A stretch of 25,688 nt of DNA from a virus (Duplodnaviria; Heunggongvirae; Uroviricota; Caudoviricetes), in IMG/VR virus record IMGVR_UViG_2925939204_000005. One strand, 5' to 3'. This document shows positions 4,770 through 22,671 of this stretch, in pieces; within the stretch, counting starts at the first letter, position 1; each line of letters begins with the position of its first letter. The notes beneath the pieces are model-generated. The model had not been told where the DNA came from. It saw only the letters and a program-made list of their open reading frames with translations, and did no database searches. The translations under genes and the position numbers were made by a program.

Positions 4770-4827
4770 AAAAACGGCGGCAGAGCAGTCACGGAGTAAA
4801 ACTGATACCGCCAAACGTCACCAGAAA
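4770..4827 (-). ncRNA. dicF: DicF small regulatory RNA (ftsZ-targeting antisense sRNA)
   Basis: Reverse complement of 4770..4827 reads TTTCTGGTGACGTTTGGCGGTATCAGTTTTACTCCGTGACTGCTCTGCCGCCGTTTTT, matching the remembered DicF sequence including the terminal GC-rich hairpin plus U-run; sits between ydfC and dicB. Confidence 0.85.
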
Positions 4828-11331: not shown

Positions 11332-12073
11332 TTTACTCTCCAAACACTCAAAAAAAAGCTAATCTTCTATAATAACGAAATTCAGCTGGCACAATTAAAG
11401 ATTAATTGCCACCAATTTCTTGATTTTATAATTTTATCTAAATGTTTTTGATTAATCTAGTCCTAAAAGAAACCTACTGCATAAATATTTATGCTGATGA
11501 CCCACTCCCTGTTCGTTAACACATAGCAACGTTAGTAATGCATCCTAAGTGATCAATATTTTTGCTAGCTTCATCTGCTCGCTCAAAGGGAACTATAATG
11601 TTGGCTTGCGTGTGACTTGGCATGTTTAAAGAAGTGCTGGTGGTGACTGGTTGCTGTTTTCCATTTCCACAGAACAAAATCATAGAAACTATACCCAGTA
11701 GTTGTATTGAATCACTGACGAGACAGCCTCATATTTATCAGGACTGGTGTACGTCCAATACAGGAGGTTGTGGTGCTGGTTCTCAAATGTGCGCTGGCTA
11801 TTGCTGCTGTAATGGCAATTTATTGTCTTGCTGTTGTTCTTATGGATCACCTTTCTGATTGATTTCATATTGGCGAGGTAACGGTAGTTAAGTAGAATTG
11901 CTGCGGGTGCTTGAGGCTATCTGCCTCGGGCATCAACACCAAAGGCAGATAGAGAAAAGCCCCAGTTAACATTACGCGTCCGGCAAGACGCTTAACATTA
12001 ATCTGAGGCCATATCTATGCTCTACACACGTAGGTTAGCCTCTTACGTGCCGAAAGGCAAGGAGAAGCAGGCT

Positions 12074-12229
12074 ATGAAGCAGCAAAAGGCGATGCTAATC
12101 GCCCTGATCGTCATCTGTTTAACCGTCATAGTGACGGCACTGGTAACGAGGAAAGACCTCTGCGAGGTACGAATCCGAATCGGCCAGACGGAGGTCGCTG
12201 TCTTCACAGCTTACGAACCTGAGGAGTAA
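12074..12229 (+). CDS. hok: Hok-family type I toxin (51 aa; HokD/RelF-like)
   Basis: MKQQKAMLIALIVICLTVIVTALVTRKDLCEVRIRIGQTEVAVFTAYEPEE: single TM helix followed by the conserved Hok periplasmic tail; AAGGAGAAG SD upstream. The ORF-track start at 12017 is an in-frame upstream extension. Confidence 0.85.
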   Translation: MKQQKAMLIALIVICLTVIVTALVTRKDLCEVRIRIGQTEVAVFTAYEPEE

Positions 12230-14110: not shown

Positions 14111-14488
14111 ATGCGTGATATTCAGATGGTTCTTGAGCGTTGGGGGGCATGGGCGGCTTATAATCATGAAGATGTGACCTGGTCGTCCATTGCCGCCGGT
14201 TTTAAGGGATTAATTCCTTCAAAAGTAAGATCTCGTCCGCAATGCTGTGACGATGACGTGATGATCATTTGTGAATGTATGGCTCGCCTGAAAAAAAACA
14301 ACAGCGATTTACATGATTTATTGGTGGACTATTATGTCGGCGGCATGACTTTTATGGCGCTTGCACGTAAGCATGGGCGATCTGATTGTTGGGTTGGCAG
14401 GATGCTCCAGAAAGCTGAGGGCGTAGTGGAGGGCATGCTGATGGTGTTGGATCTCCGATTGGAGATGGATGCTGATTGTTCGAAATAA
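14111..14488 (+). CDS. Late-gene antiterminator Q (QuuD/QuuQ-like)
   Basis: [16 protein letters not shown]...SRPQCCDDD...[16 protein letters not shown] resembles the remembered E. coli prophage Q proteins; ATG at 14111 with GGAG SD (the ORF-track start at 14096 is TTG). Confidence 0.85.
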
Positions 14489-14586: not shown

Positions 14587-14618
14587 AGCCAGCCTCCCCA
14601 AAGGCTGGTTTTTTTTCT
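14587..14618 (+). terminator. Rho-independent terminator (tR'-like) downstream of Q
   Basis: AGCCAGCCTCCCCAAAGGCTGG followed by TTTTTTTT, about 100 nt downstream of Q, which is the expected place for the pR'/qut/tR' module. The promoter and qut themselves were not resolved. Confidence 0.7.
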
Positions 14619-14644: not shown

Positions 14645-15169
14645 TTATTGTTTAACCCATAATAGTTCATTGACATTGAATCCCAACTTTTGAGCGGTAC
14701 GCACATAGTCTGCTTTTACATTATCTGGAATAGTTTGGGTCCTTGCCAGAATCCATAGGTATTCTCTGTTCGGACCACTGACAAGAGCATACTTATACTC
14801 ATCATCCAGCTTGATTACATTATAGCCACCATAGAAGGGGCCAAAAAACGAAACTTTCAACGCTGCAGTTTTAGTATCTCCAGTAAAGTATGCTTTACCT
14901 TCGCTCTCGCTCCATTTGTTTTTCGTTGGATCGTATCCACGGTTAAGTACGCGAATCCCTCCGTCGTTCCGTTTTTCATAAGTAGCGCTGACCTGTTCCA
15001 GACCACGTTCGAACCAGTTCTCGAGGCGAGCTATTTCATACCATTTTCCGAGGTAGCGGTTGGCGTCAAAATTTGTAATCGGCTGCACACCTTTAGGTGG
15101 TGTCGGGGCCTTACATGCTATAAAAGTGAAAGAGAGTGCAATGCCAGTCAACACAGGCCATAACTTCAT
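14645..15169 (-). CDS. Bacterial lipocalin (Blc-like outer-membrane lipoprotein), moron
   Basis: 174 aa with a lipoprotein signal and lipobox (FTFIAC) and lipocalin motifs (NFDANRYLGKWYEIAR ... KVSFFGPFYGGYNVI), clearly homologous to but diverged from chromosomal Blc; opposite strand to the late operon. Confidence 0.85.
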   Translation of the reverse strand: MKLWPVLTGIALSFTFIACKAPTPPKGVQPITNFDANRYLGKWYEIARLENWFERGLEQVSATYEKRNDGGIRVLNRGYDPTKNKWSESEGKAYFTGDTKTAALKVSFFGPFYGGYNVIKLDDEYKYALVSGPNREYLWILARTQTIPDNVKADYVRTAQKLGFNVNELLWVKQ

Positions 15170-15361: not shown

Positions 15362-16321
15362 ATGATAAAAAAACCTGTGATTGGGATCAGCGGTTGTTTG
15401 GGCGGTTCTGCTGTTCGTTTTGATGGTGGTCACAAAAGAGATGACTTTTTAATGGACAAATTAGTGGAATGGGTAACATTCAGACCAGTATGTCCGGAAA
15501 TGGCTATAGGGCTGCCAGTTCCGCGTCCTGCTCTACGACTTGTGCGCTCGAAGCAAGGAAATATACGGATGTGTTTCAGCCACGACCAGAATGAGGATGT
15601 GACAGAGAGAATGACAGAGTTTAGTCGTTCTTATATGGACAAATTAAAGGATGTATCGGGGTTTGTGGTTTGTGCTAAATCTCCCAGCTGTGGCATGGAG
15701 CGCGTGCGTGTCTATGATGAAAATGGTAATCGAGGTCGTAAAGATGGAGTGGGACTATTTACGAGCACTTTGATGGAAAAGTTTTCCTGGCTACCGGTTG
15801 AAGAGGATGGGCGATTACATGATCCAGTGCTTCGTGAGAATTTTATTGAAAGAGTTTTTGCTTTGCATGAGCTCAATCATCTTTACAAGGAGAAATTATC
15901 AAGAAGAGAGTTATTAGCTTTTCATAGTCGTTATAAGCTTCAGTTGTTGGCGCATAGCCAGGCAGGCTATAAAGATATGGGACCATTTGTGGCTGCAATA
16001 CACGAGTGGGCGGACCTTGAATCATACTTTGAGGTGTATCGTGATAATCTGATGGCGATTCTCAGAAAACCAGCATCACGTAAAAATCACACGAATGTGC
16101 TGATGCATATACAGGGGTATTTTAGTAATTACTTAAGTACACGCCAGCGTAAAGAGTTGAGCGAGGTTATACTTAACTATCGCTTTGGCACATTGCCTCT
16201 TCTTGCGCCGTTGACTCTGCTGAAGCATTATCTGGGTGAGTATCCAAATGATTACTTGCTTACACAGAATTACTTCGATCCCTATCCGGAAGAACTGGCT
16301 CTAAGACTGATGGTGAATTAA
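15362..16321 (+). CDS. DUF523 + DUF1722 two-domain protein (YbgA/TudS-like), moron
   Basis: 319 aa with strong SD (AAGGGGGAGGAA). N-terminus has conserved Cys residues (GISGCLGG ... VCPE ... CAKSPSCG) typical of DUF523 (putative Fe-S, thiouracil-desulfidase-like) domains; C-terminal half resembles the YbgA-type DUF1722 domain. Confidence 0.75.
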   Translation: MIKKPVIGISGCLGGSAVRFDGGHKRDDFLMDKLVEWVTFRPVCPEMAIGLPVPRPALRLVRSKQGNIRMCFSHDQNEDVTERMTEFSRSYMDKLKDVSGFVVCAKSPSCGMERVRVYDENGNRGRKDGVGLFTSTLMEKFSWLPVEEDGRLHDPVLRENFIERVFALHELNHLYKEKLSRRELLAFHSRYKLQLLAHSQAGYKDMGPFVAAIHEWADLESYFEVYRDNLMAILRKPASRKNHTNVLMHIQGYFSNYLSTRQRKELSEVILNYRFGTLPLLAPLTLLKHYLGEYPNDYLLTQNYFDPYPEELALRLMVN

Positions 16322-16480
16322 CTGTATGCGATATCATCTGAAAGTGATGAGTTCCTGTATGCAGGATATTTACAATCGTAAAAACTACGCTATGATGCCC
16401 ATAGTGTCAGTTTGTATAAAAATGCGGTGATGCTGCCAACTTACTGATTTAGTGTATGATGGTGTTTTTGAGGTGCTCCA

Positions 16481-16756
16481 GTGGCTTCTGTTTCTATCAG
16501 CTGTCCCTCCTGTTCAGCTACTGACGGGGTGGTGCGTAACGGCAAAAGCACCGCCGGACATCAGCGCTATCTCTGCTCTCACTGCCGTAAAACATGGCAA
16601 CTGCAGTTCACTTACACCGCTTCTCAACCCGGTACGCACCAGAAAATCATTGATATGGCCATGAATGGCGTTGGATGCCGGGCAACTGCCCGCATTATGG
16701 GCGTTGGCCTCAACACGATTTTACGTCACTTAAAAAACTCAGGCCGCAGTCGGTAA
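16481..16756 (+). CDS. insA: IS1 InsA (91 aa)
   Basis: [40 protein letters not shown]...: canonical InsA with zinc-finger and HTH. Confidence 0.9.
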
Positions 16757-17178
16757 CCTCGCGCATACAGCCGGGCAGTGACGTCATCGTCTGCGCGGAA
16801 ATGGACGAACAGTGGGGCTATGTCGGGGCTAAATCGCGCCAGCGCTGGCTGTTTTACGCGTATGACAGTCTCCGGAAGACGGTTGTTGCGCACGTATTCG
16901 GTGAGCGCACTATGGCGACGCTGGGGCGTCTTATGAGCCTGCTGTCACCCTTTGACGTGGTGATATGGATGACGGATGGCTGGCCGCTGTATGAATCCCG
17001 CCTGAAGGGAAAGCTGCACGTAATCAGCAAACGATATACGCAGCGAATTGAGCGGCATAACCTGAATCTGAGGCAGCACCTGGCACGGCTGGGACGGAAG
17101 TCGCTGTCGTTCTCAAAATCGGTGGAGCTGCATGACAAAGTCATCGGGCATTATCTGAACATAAAACACTATCAATAA
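16675..17178 (+). CDS. insB: IS1 InsB frame (167-aa annotated ORF; expressed as InsAB' by -1 frameshifting)
   Basis: [21 protein letters not shown]...: canonical InsB reading frame; the A-run slippery site lies in the insA/insB overlap. Confidence 0.85.
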
Positions 17179-17252
17179 GTTGGAGTCATTACCCTTCTTT
17201 CCTTCTTCGAACCAAACCGTGTACACCATCCGTTATCTGCGGAGGTGAGGCT

Positions 17253-17468
17253 ATGAAATCCATGGATAAGTTAACAACGGGCATCGCCTACAGCACCTCT
17301 GCAGGCAGTGCTGGCTACTGGTTTTTACAGTTGCTCGATAAAGTCACGCCCTCACAGTGGGCGGCAATAGGTGTGCTGGGTAGCCTGGTATTTGGCCTGC
17401 TGACGTACCTGACAAACCTTTATTTCAAGATTAAAGAAGATAAGCGCAAGGCTGCGAGAGGTGAATAA
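17253..17468 (+). CDS. Class II holin (phage 21 S / EssD-like pinholin, 71 aa)
   Basis: [24 protein letters not shown]...: two TM segments, dual-start motif (Met1/Met4), charged C-terminus; GGAGGTGAGG SD. Confidence 0.85.
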
Positions 17469-17965
17469 TGCCTCCATCATTACGAAAAGCCGTTGCTGCT
17501 GCTATTGGTGGCGGAGCAATTGCTATAGCATCAGTGTTAATTACTGGCCCAAGTGGTAACGATGGTCTGGAAGGTGTCAGCTACATACCATACAAAGATA
17601 TTGTTGGTGTATGGACTGTATGTCACGGGCATACAGGAAAAGACATCATGTTCGGTAAAACGTATACCAAAGCAGAATGCAAAGCCCTCCTGAATAAAGA
17701 CCTTGCCACGGTCGCCAGACAAATTAACCCGTACATCAAAGTCGATATACCGGAAACAATGCGCGGCGCTCTTTACTCATTCGTTTACAACGTGGGTGCT
17801 GGCAATTTCAGAACATCGACGCTTCTTCGCAAAATAAACCAGGGCGATATCAAAGGCGCATGTGATCAGCTACGTCGCTGGACATATGCTGGCGGTAAGC
17901 AATGGAAAGGTCTCATGACTCGTCGTGAGATTGAGCGTGAAATCTGTTTGTGGGGTCAGCAATGA
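17468..17965 (+). CDS. SAR endolysin (T4-lysozyme-like muramidase, phage 21 R-like)
   Basis: N-terminal Gly/Ala-rich signal-anchor-release segment ([18 protein letters not shown]) and catalytic E-x8-D-x5-T triad ([16 protein letters not shown]); start overlaps the holin stop. Confidence 0.85.
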
Positions 17966-18423
17966 ACAGAGTAACCGCGATTATCTCCGCTCTGGTTATC
18001 TGCATCATCGTCGGCCTGTCATGGGCTGTTAATCATTACCGTGATAACGCCATTACCTACAAAGCCCAGCGCGACAAAAATGCCAGAGAACTGAAGCTGG
18101 CGAACGCGGCAATTACTGACATGCAGATGCGTCAGCGTGATGTTGCTGCGCTCGATGCAAAATACACGAAGGAGTTAGCTGATGCGAAAGCTGAAAATGA
18201 TGCTCTGCGTGATGATGTTGCCGCTGGTCGTCGTCGGTTGCACATCAAAGCAGTCTGTCAGTCAGTGCGTGAAGCCACCACCGCCTCCGGCGTGGATAAT
18301 GCAGCCTCCCCCCGACTGGCAGACACCGCTGAACGGGATTATTTCACCCTCAGAGAGAGGCTGATCACTATGCAAAAACAACTGGAAGGAACCCAGAAGT
18401 ATATTAATGAGCAGTGCAGATAG
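17962..18423 (+). CDS. Rz i-spanin
   Basis: [21 protein letters not shown]...: N-terminal TM anchor followed by a coiled-coil-rich periplasmic domain; start overlaps the endolysin stop. Confidence 0.8.
18182..18364 (+). CDS. Rz1 o-spanin (lipoprotein embedded in Rz in the +1 frame)
   Basis: 60-aa ORF wholly inside Rz: signal peptide with lipobox Cys (LVVVGC) and proline-rich mature region ([15 protein letters not shown]). Confidence 0.75.
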
Positions 18424-19976: not shown

Positions 19977-21287
19977 ATGGGTTTTTCATCAGCCCGAAAT
20001 TTGGGAAGGGACATATCGGCAGGATTTTCCCCACCACGTCGCATGCCGATTTCGGAGGCTGTTAAAAAATTCATGCGTGTTCCCAAGGGGGCTGGTAACT
20101 CGGTGCCATGGGATCCTGAACTGACACCCTACATCATTGAGCCCATGAACTGCCTGGCATCGCGTGAATACGATGCGGTGATTTTTGTTGGTCCTGCGCG
20201 AACAGGGAAGACCATTGGTCTGATCGATGGATGGATTGTCTATACCATCGTTTGCGATCCTTCGGACATGCTCGTTGTGCAGATGACCGAAGATAAGGCC
20301 CGCGAGCATTCTAAAAAGCGCCTCGACAGAACGTTCAGAAGCAGTGCGGCGGTAAAGAAAAGAATGAGTCCACGTCGTAACGACAATAATGTCCATGATA
20401 AGACGTTCAGGGATGGCTCGTTCCTTAAAATTGGTTGGCCCTCGGTCAACATTATGTCGTCGTCGGATTACCGGTTTGTCGCCTTAACCGATTACGACCG
20501 TTTTCCGGAGAATATCGACAGCGAGGGTGATGGTTTCTCCCTGGCCTCAAAACGTACCACCACATTTATGTCCGCCGGGATGACTCTGGTGGAGAGCTCG
20601 CCGGGACGTGACATCTGCGACAGCAAATGGCGACGTAAGTCGCCTCATGAAGCGCCACCGACGACTGGTATTCTTTCCCTTTACAATCGTGGTGACCGCC
20701 GCCGCTGGTACTGGCCATGTCCGCACTGCGGTGAATATTTTCAGCCAGCTATGGATGCCATGACCGGCTACCGTAATGAACCGGATCCCTTTAAAGCCAG
20801 TGAGGCGGCGTATCTACTTTGCCCACACTGCAGCGGCATTATCACTGCGGAGAAAAAGCGTGAGCTCAATAGTGCAGGAGTCTGGTTGCGTGAAGGTCAG
20901 GTCATTGATCGTAACGGCAACGTTTCCGGTGAACCGCGCCGCTCCCGTATCGCCAGTTTCTGGATGGAAGGGCCAGCTGCTGCGTATCAGGCCTGGGCGC
21001 AACTGGTTTACAAATTACTGACTGCAGAACAGGAGTATGAAGCGACAGGAAGAGAAGAAACACTCAGGGCGGTTATCAACACCGACTGGGGATTACCTTA
21101 TCTTCCCCGCGCCAGCATGGAGCAACGAAAAAGTGAACTGCTTGAGCAGCGGGCAGAGCCAGTTCCTTCCCGCAGTGTGCCAGATGGCGTTAATTTCCTT
21201 GTGGCGACAGTGGATGTGCAGGCGGGACGTCATCGCCGTTTTGTGGTTCAGGTACCGGAGTCGGAAGTTGCCGGACCCTGCAGATGA
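19977..21287 (+). pseudogene. Terminase large subunit, C-terminally truncated (first about 425 codons only)
   Basis: AGGAGG SD; zinc-ribbon-like motif WYWPCPHCGEYFQ comparable to lambda gpA. The frame ends about 10 codons after [19 protein letters not shown], at the start of the expected nuclease domain, where the sequence switches to tail-fibre sequence. Confidence 0.8.
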
Positions 21288-22090
21288 AGGCGCATTACAG
21301 AAATGGTGGTCTGTTCTACCGTTCTTCAAGAGACGGTTATGGTTTTGAGGAAGGCTGGGCAGAAGTTTATACCTCGAAAAATCTTCCACCAGAAAGCTAC
21401 CCAGTCGGCGCACCAATCCCGTGGCCATCAGATACCGTTCCGTCTGGTTATGCCCTGATGCAGGGGCAGACTTTTGACAAATCTGCCTACCCAAAACTTG
21501 CAGCCGCTTATCCGTCAGGCGTGATCCCTGATATGCGTGGCTGGACGATTAAGGGCAAACCTGCCAGTGGTCGGGCCGTATTGTCTCAGGAACAGGACGG
21601 CATTAAATCGCACACCCACAGCGCCAGCGCATCCAGTACGGATTTGGGGACGAAAACCACATCGTCGTTTGATTACGGAACCAAATCCACGAATAACACC
21701 GGGGCGCATACCCATAGTATTAGCGGGACCGCAAATAGTGCCGGTGCGCACCAACACAAGAGTTCCGGTGCATTTGGTGGCACGAACACGAGCATTTTCC
21801 CTAATGGTTATACCGCGATTTCAAATCTAAGCGCGGGGATTATGAGCACAACAAGCGGTAGTGGCCAGACTCGTAATGCAGGGAAGACATCATCAGATGG
21901 TGCTCATACCCACTCGCTGTCCGGCACTGCTGCAAGCGCAGGCGCACATGCACATACTGTCGGTATTGGTGCTCATACGCACTCCGTTGCGATTGGCTCA
22001 CATGGACACACCATCACCGTTAACGCTGCTGGTAACGCGGAAAACACCGTCAAAAACATCGCATTTAACTATATTGTGAGGCTTGCATAA
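21284..22090 (+). pseudogene. Side tail fibre protein (Stf) C-terminal fragment
   Basis: 268-aa ORF with G-A-H-T/Q-H-S repeats and the conserved ending [14 protein letters not shown] typical of lambdoid Stf C-termini; the N-terminal part (typically several hundred codons) is missing. The true 5' boundary is the deletion junction near 21250..21285. Confidence 0.75.
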
Positions 22091-22671
22091 TGGCATTCAG
22101 AATGAGTGAACAAGCACGGACCATAAAAATTTATAATCTGCTGGCCGGAACTAATGAATTTATTGGTGAAGGTGACGCATATATTCCGCCTCATACAGGT
22201 CTGCCAGCAAACAGTACCGATATTGCACCACCAGATATTCCGGCAGGCTTCGTGGCTGTTTTCAACAGTGATGAGGCATCGTGGCATCTCGTTGAAGACC
22301 ATCGGGGTAAAACGGTTTATGACGTGGCTTCCGGCGACGCGTTATTTATTTCTGAACTCGGTCCGTTACCGGAAAATGTTACCTGGTTGTCGCCGGGAGG
22401 GGAATATCAGAAGTGGAACGGCACAGCCTGGGTGAAGGATACGGAAGCAGAAAAACTGTTCCGGATCCGGGAGGCAGAAGAAACAAAAAACAGCCTGATG
22501 CAGGTAGCCAGTGAGCATATTGCGCCACTTCAGGATGCTGTAGATCTGGAAATCGCAACGGAGGAAGAAATCTCGTTGCTGGAAGCCTGGAAGAAGTATC
22601 GGGTGTTGCTGAACCGTGTTAATACAACAACTGCACCGGATATTGAATGGCCAGTAGCACCTATAGGGTAA
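22090..22671 (+). CDS. Tail fibre assembly protein Tfa (193 aa)
   Basis: ATG overlaps the stf stop (TAATG); conserved C-terminal motif [29 protein letters not shown]. Confidence 0.85.

Follow-up and report, generated by a model that had tools for sequence, protein, structure and literature searches.

Organization of the prophage and its late region

The DNA analyzed here, a stretch of 25,688 nucleotides that we call the window, differs by a single base from the chromosome of Escherichia coli AR_0128 (99.996% identity) and constitutes a cryptic prophage of the Qin type that lies in ydfJ, with rspB on one side and ydfJ/ydfI on the other. It is recognizable as Qin-type by the ydfJ site, by dicA, dicC and dicB, and by the DicF sRNA (4775-4826, minus strand). 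The early genes comprise those for an integrase, an excisionase and a recE-like exonuclease together with ydfD, dicB, ydfA-C, dicA and dicC, the prophage repressor being of the DicA type; beyond them lie hokD, rem and ydfU. DicF, the sok antitoxin RNA beside hokD (11905-12079, plus strand) and IS009 inside the tail-fibre assembly gene (22433-22631, plus strand) all score above their Rfam gathering scores. Given the near-identity to an E. coli chromosome, and since about 5,000 of the 5,426 E. coli genomes have IS1 ends, an origin in Shigella, at which the original prediction had hinted, is unnecessary.

The late region opens with the gene for the antiterminator Q (14111-14488, plus strand; 125 aa; Pfam PF06530, E = 8e-50), which is annotated as intact in AR_0128. 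About 100 bp after it lies an intrinsic terminator hairpin with a T8 run (14587-14618, plus strand; -14.2 kcal/mol, z = -3.4), a candidate for tR'. It is followed by two morons, an antisense blc-like lipocalin gene (14645-15169, minus strand; Pfam Lipocalin_2; NCBIfam Blc with 311.8 bits against a cut-off of 267) and a ybgA-like gene (15362-16321, plus strand; DUF523/2-thiouracil desulfurase and DUF1722). Then come an IS1 and the lysis genes, all on the plus strand: the holin gene essD (17253-17468; 71 aa) and the endolysin gene rrrD (17468-17965; 165 aa), both intact open reading frames annotated in AR_0128, and the spanin gene rzpD (Rz; 17962-18423) with an embedded Rz1 open reading frame (18182-18364). 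The iss/bor gene closes the series. The IS1 thus lies where it had been placed from the sequence alone, between Q with the morons and the lysis genes. These features are the hallmarks of a lambdoid late operon, in which Q, a short leader and an intrinsic terminator are followed on the Q strand by genes for a holin, an endolysin and an Rz/Rz1 spanin.

Further downstream we find remnants, namely a small terminase subunit gene, a large terminase gene that breaks off at about 21287 and runs into the 3' portion of a tail-fibre gene, and tfaQ. In AR_0128, the truncated large terminase and the tail-fibre 3' part (window 19977-22090) are both annotated by PGAP as partial pseudogenes. Because the whole portal/head/tail module has been deleted, the prophage is unable to form particles.

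The Qin prophage of K-12 occupies the same site (rspB ... ydfJ, ydfI), shares dicA, dicC, dicB, DicF, ydfA-D, hokD/sok, rem and ydfU, and is likewise defective. In contrast to it, the window carries blc, ybgA and IS1, then a lysis cassette of the essD/rrrD/rzpD type and the iss/bor gene; in K-12 Qin, cspB/cspF lie between Q and essQ, and the lysis cassette is of the essQ/rrrQ type. A further difference is that the integrase and recE-like exonuclease genes of the window carry no pseudogene flag. The same late module, devoid of IS1, is present over at least 80% of the query in 11 deposited phage genomes, including 1H12 (NC_049947, Jouyvirus) and Lambda_2E9. This group has Q, the terminator, antisense blc, ybgA, the lysis cassette and bor in the same order as the window, with 93% identity over the shared parts; however, these are complete 46.7-kb phage genomes, which have a 243-aa AraC-type gene and a terminator between ybgA and the holin gene, and no IS1.

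A complete IS1 without a target-site duplication

The IS1 (IS1A-type) occupies the 768 bp from 16426 to 17193 on the plus strand of this decayed E. coli prophage, as delimited by its terminal repeats, a full-length alignment and the RefSeq annotation in AR_0128; the coordinates given earlier, 16417-17202, take in a 9-bp flank on each side. A repeat search recovered the left (16426-16448) and right (17171-17193) terminal inverted repeats, which are 23 nt long and imperfect (GGTGATGCTGCCAACTTACTGAT / GGTAATGACTCCAACTTATTGAT). Between them are two open frames on the plus strand, insA (16481-16756), which codes for 91 aa, and insB' (16675-17178). The A6C motif TTAAAAAACTC at 16730 provides for the -1 frameshift that yields the InsAB' transposase, whose reading direction is that of the phage late genes. 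The length of about 768 bp, the imperfect repeats of about 23 bp and the insA/insB' frameshift at A6C together place the element in the IS1 family. It aligns end to end (768/768, 99.6% identity) with an IS1 of the strain 19M19, the ends of which are fixed by a perfect target duplication. At the near-identical locus of AR_0128, RefSeq/PGAP assigns the transposase to the IS1A family, with a programmed frameshift, and does not mark it as a pseudogene. The IS1 is complete and apparently functional. Its size, its 23-nt repeats, its A6C site and its AT-rich target are those of the known IS1A and IS1B of E. coli; the element itself is ordinary, and only its location and the 1147 bp lost beside it (see below) are specific to the lineage.

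A simple insertion of IS1 is accompanied by a 9-bp, sometimes 8-bp, target duplication, and none is seen here. The left flank TAAAAATGC (16417-16425, plus strand) and the right flank CTTCTTTCC (17194-17202, plus strand) agree at 2 of 9 positions, which is the level of chance: among some 24,900 pairs of 9-mers spaced 768 bp apart in the window, 2/9 is the commonest value (30.6%), and 8/9 or 9/9 does not occur. No flank length from 5 to 12 bp gave a better result than 9 bp, and a search with 6-bp seeds for direct repeats of 5-12 bp flanking the IS1, short and offset ones included, found none. The original prediction of a complete IS1 with intact ends and no target-site duplication is therefore upheld on re-inspection. 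The missing duplication leaves the membership of the element in the IS1 family intact; what it shows is that the junctions as they now stand do not stem from a single simple insertion.

Comparison with IS1-free relatives

Between the two breakpoints, IS1-free relatives, including the deposited genome of phage 1H12, have extra DNA of about 1147 bp. In BLAST comparisons with 19M19 (locus L004), window 16327-16423 corresponds to L004 3930-4026 and window 17194-17469 to L004 5176-5451, so that the segment absent from the window is L004 4029-5175, or 1147 bp; this length is measured on the closest relatives and becomes roughly 1.05 kb with the 1H12-type allele. The left flank at 16417-16425, where IS1-free relatives read TAAAAATCC or TAAAAATTC, represents the last collinear bases and hence the left deletion breakpoint; alignment with 1H12 and ECCWS199 shows it tracking the relatives as far as ...TATAAAAAT(G/C/T)C. 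On the right, the match begins again precisely with CTTCTTTCC, the first collinear bases; this right-hand breakpoint of the deletion precedes the start codon of essD by 59 bp. Position 16424 at the left junction is G in the window and C or T in the relatives, and is read as a polymorphism.

The intact ybgA-HTH-holin stretch is found in 859 genomes. R32_14_1F, which among the IS1-free relatives comes nearest to the window in the right flank (98%), has the gene order Q-blc-ybgA-HTH-essD, and a gene for a 'helix-turn-helix domain-containing' protein of 237-243 aa lies between ybgA and the holin gene in ECCWS199, 19M19 and R32_14_1F alike. A precise empty site, which would have spoken against the original prediction and for which we searched with a 159-bp flank-to-flank query, is lacking: none of the 5,426 E. 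coli genomes covers the junction. Thus, flanks that are collinear with IS-free relatives up to the IS1 ends, with the intervening 1147 bp absent, mark an IS-associated deletion. This agrees with the expectation of a deletion or recombination as opposed to a simple insertion, and the alignment to IS1-free prophages that had been proposed as a check reveals the missing sequence to contain an AraC-type gene. Whichever IS1-linked route was taken, the sequences make it almost certain that the disappearance of about 1.15 kb is linked to the element. Because the DNA next to the IS1 was lost, its two flanks come from different sites and, therefore, form no 9-bp duplication.

The lost DNA has a G+C content of 32%, as against 45% for the window, and holds the gene for a 237-aa regulator of the AraC/XylS family together with the region upstream of it. 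Some 40 bp short of the right breakpoint it also has an intrinsic terminator, in which a T-run comes after the hairpin ACGCCAG-loop-CTGGCGT. The regulator matches the Pfam families HTH_18 and HTH_AraC. In the manner of the prophage AraC-like regulators AppY, the YdeO-like proteins, PatE and PsrA/PsrB, it is a prophage-borne protein of about 240 aa with a C-terminal AraC-type helix-turn-helix; the likeness to PatE, Psr and AppY is by description, and the best full-length NCBIfam match, to YdeO, has a score (113.8 bits) far under the equivalog cut-off of 348. Acid resistance and type III secretion are under the control of PatE and Psr, both of them AraC-like and encoded by prophages (PMC10877973). 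The certain consequence of the deletion is the loss of this AraC-type regulator. Just left of the IS1 there is also a promoter-like site (16369-16396; TTTACA, a 16-bp spacer and TATGAT; 10 of 12 matches), which in IS1-free relatives precedes the AraC-type gene by about 360 bp and in the window is directed into the left end of the IS1.

Spread and inheritance of the junctions

Among complete genomes, 36 show the exact left junction as a single piece and 35 the exact right one; the strains come from humans, chickens, pigs, a dog, fish and frogs. An assembly artefact can be ruled out, as dozens of independent complete assemblies share both junctions. The invariance of both junctions across these genomes shows that the deletion happened once and was then inherited.

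In two members, strains 165 (locus L008, 6643-8476) and CREC-591 (L009), an element of the IS3 family splits rrrD with both IS1 junctions unchanged; a nested or extended deletion was sought in these two strains, and only the added IS3-family element in rrrD was found. JX2 has an IS3 between the IS1 and essD (L001 7432-8594), and its Q gene is annotated as frameshifted. Sublineages with the window junctions have thus gained further IS elements, and the late region is still decaying.

The number of chromosomal places occupied by IS1 in the junction-sharing genomes ranges from 1 (SRY149/157/206, PEC301 and EH01-18-02) to 32 (ET791); the one place in JX2 is that at the left junction. The resident IS1 is annotated as IS1A in some of these genomes and as IS1B in others. 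The varying counts and annotations suggest recent, strain-specific expansion of IS1 and possibly gene conversion between copies. Instead of the usual 768 bp, MS6192/MS6193 have 764 bp from flank to flank and ET791 has 767 bp, which reflects either small indels in IS1 or homopolymer errors of assembly.

Other IS1 events in the same region

Independent IS1 events are observed in the stretch from Q to the holin gene in at least 7 lineages, made up of 3 simple insertions, 2 deletions, 1 large loss and 1 apparent inversion (IS1 at L004 3162-3929, L012 2813-3580, L013 2813-3580 and L005 1883-2650, and in L010 and L011). Three copies within the same ~1.3 kb are flanked by perfect 9-bp duplications, with no loss of DNA beside them: that of 19M19, inserted 15 bp after ybgA in the opposite orientation (TGCGATATC); that of 2017.10.01CC, in the T-tract of the terminator (GTTTTTCTT); and that of B1.H1.18, within the AraC-type gene (AGCAAAGTT). 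Two have no duplication: an IS1B of MLI104K1 between blc and the AraC-type gene (flanks AGAACTTTC / GAGTTCCTG), where ybgA is missing, and the IS1 of the window lineage between ybgA and essD. TUM2820 and ET490 show bigger IS1-linked losses and an apparent inversion immediately upstream of essD; the latter, in ET490, has corA/ysgD bracketed by two inverted IS1 copies.

That IS elements have entered the stretch between Q and the lysis genes so often is most simply explained by a preference for AT-rich targets. Selection for damping of the lysis cassette or for removal of the AraC-type regulator during domestication, which would make the window IS1 one case of recurrent adaptive silencing by IS1 and IS3, seems quite improbable to us.

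Origin of the deletion

The path that we favor would begin with the insertion of IS1 at one of the breakpoints, in an AT-rich stretch and with a normal 9-bp duplication, followed by intramolecular transposition into the other breakpoint. Such an adjacent deletion would keep the IS1 and remove the intervening DNA along with one copy of the duplication. It is favored because it needs fewer events, and we consider it the probable route. IS1 is also a classic source of adjacent deletions (Reif and Saedler, 1975). Missing duplications are generally put down to recombination between IS copies or to adjacent deletions, and in the long-term evolution experiment all 14 of 14 traced IS-associated deletions lacked a duplication and each followed an earlier insertion (PMC11708052).

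A precursor of this kind would have IS1 joined to TAAAAATGC+TGTTCACG or to TGTAACTTCTTTCC. Among the matches listed for 5,426 complete E. coli genomes, neither breakpoint is occupied by an IS1 in this orientation beside which the neighboring DNA has been kept, and hence there is no precursor with an IS at one junction and its duplication; for about 380 records, this covers the best 40 pieces per record, and a precursor in a very IS1-rich genome could be missed. The single full-coverage match to a precursor, in MLI104K1, proved to be the different IS1B-associated deletion described above. Since no precursor junction was found in the 5,426 genomes, an adjacent deletion is not separable from recombination between two IS1 copies, and we infer both the order of events and the choice of route.

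In the latter case, two IS1 of the same orientation, one per breakpoint and each with its own duplication, would have undergone homologous recombination that deleted one copy and the 1147 bp. This yields the exact end state of one IS1, flanks from two sites and no duplication, and such recombination is among the two usual reasons for a missing duplication (PMC11708052); moreover, the ~1.3-kb stretch has been repeatedly targeted by IS1 in independent lineages, and members of the lineage have up to 32 IS1 places per chromosome. Nevertheless, it takes two same-orientation insertions within 1.15 kb and a recombination, versus one insertion and one transposase-driven step, and neither a single nor a double insertion was found among the matches listed for the 5,426 genomes. 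Further, the IS1 at the window site is the sole chromosomal copy in several members, a feature of today's state and not of the ancestor's. Such a recombination is possible, but rather unlikely. We give still less credence to a one-step capture of IS1 at a DNA break, whereby insertion and the 1147-bp loss would have come about together with neither staggered cleavage nor duplication. This has been proposed for movements of IS5 and IS481 with large rearrangements that lack duplications, but every traceable case in the long-term evolution experiment was two-step (PMC11708052). The mechanism is not known to operate for IS1. It is compatible with there being no precursor among the matches listed, but that absence is weak evidence, because a single event in one lineage is concerned; overall, such a capture is very unlikely.

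It is scarcely credible that IS1 deleted nothing, be it that a simple insertion had its duplication decay or that a mosaic ancestor never carried the AraC-type gene. Lambdoid late regions are indeed mosaic, and the lysis-cassette allele of the window is at least 99% identical within its own lineage only. However, a decayed duplication would need 7 of 9 flank positions to have mutated amid flanks that are 98-100% identical to relatives, and both flanks diverge from the AraC-containing relatives at the IS1 ends, to within 1-2 bases on the left. Likewise, 0 of 5,426 genomes join the flanks directly, and all the examined Q-blc-ybgA relatives carry the AraC-type gene or an IS in its place. The preferred reading remains an insertion followed by an IS1-promoted adjacent deletion.

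Late transcription and the lysis genes

The region on which late transcription should depend is well preserved. The ~180 bp after Q, including the hairpin and T8 run, are 97% conserved relative to phage 1H12, and at 14587-14618 the stem and loop are identical in the window and three relatives, 1H12 among them, with a one-base difference in the T-run. In the ancestral layout, the late transcript crosses the antisense gene, the two morons and a terminator, since deleted, before reaching the holin gene; in 1H12 and ten similar Lambda_* records, the lysis genes lie about 3.4 kb downstream of Q, past the antisense gene and two terminator-like hairpins. A promoter-like site was found neither between the right end of the IS1 and essD in the window nor after the terminator in the relatives; therefore, the lysis genes rely on read-through in both states. 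A hybrid promoter formed by the right end of the IS1 and its flank was also considered and rejected: no promoter-like match precedes essD, and by eye a -35-like TTGGAG in the right repeat is followed 17 bp on by TTCTTC, a poor -10.

The original prediction held that the IS1 uncouples lysis from induction, and in its stronger form the element would block Q-dependent late transcription, leaving the holin, endolysin and spanin genes no longer switched by Q. The matter is one of consequence and is independent of how the deletion arose. The IS1 does lie between the candidate late promoter and the lysis genes, with no promoter-like site between it and essD, and IS1 insertions are classically polar; the decay of the cassette in sublineages, for example by the IS3-family element in rrrD, also fits genes that are no longer needed. 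On the other hand, read-through of IS1 by Q-modified polymerase is to be expected from what is generally known of Q. Q-loaded RNA polymerase resists intrinsic and Rho-dependent termination, and the Q protein of lambda is a documented suppressor of polarity (PMC12360218). Moreover, a terminator before the holin gene was already part of the ancestral state and was removed by the deletion, and the 1H12 and Lambda_* phages have their lysis genes about 3.4 kb from Q, beyond an antisense gene and two terminator-like hairpins. With Q and the region after it intact, we find a block unlikely and the uncoupling of lysis from Q doubtful. The lysis genes should instead stay Q-dependent, with transcription from just after Q now crossing the IS1 in place of the regulator gene and terminator, and their Q-dependent expression is probably somewhat reduced, not abolished. 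Classical induction of this prophage is doubtful in any case, because the head/tail module is lost and the repressor is of the DicA type.

Implications

The window IS1 represents an ordinary IS1-associated deletion in a decaying prophage, at a locus already annotated publicly and by a textbook phenomenon, and its significance beyond bookkeeping is small. It does offer a clean case from nature, with good controls, of a general rule: where an IS lacks its target duplication, DNA has been lost or rearranged. The stable pair of junctions could serve as a lineage marker for human and animal isolates of E. coli. Whether the lysis genes can still be switched through the IS1 bears on the safety of cryptic prophages for their hosts. 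For the bacteria themselves, the deletion has left a lineage without a prophage AraC-type regulator, a class that reaches into the regulation of acid resistance and virulence in EHEC.
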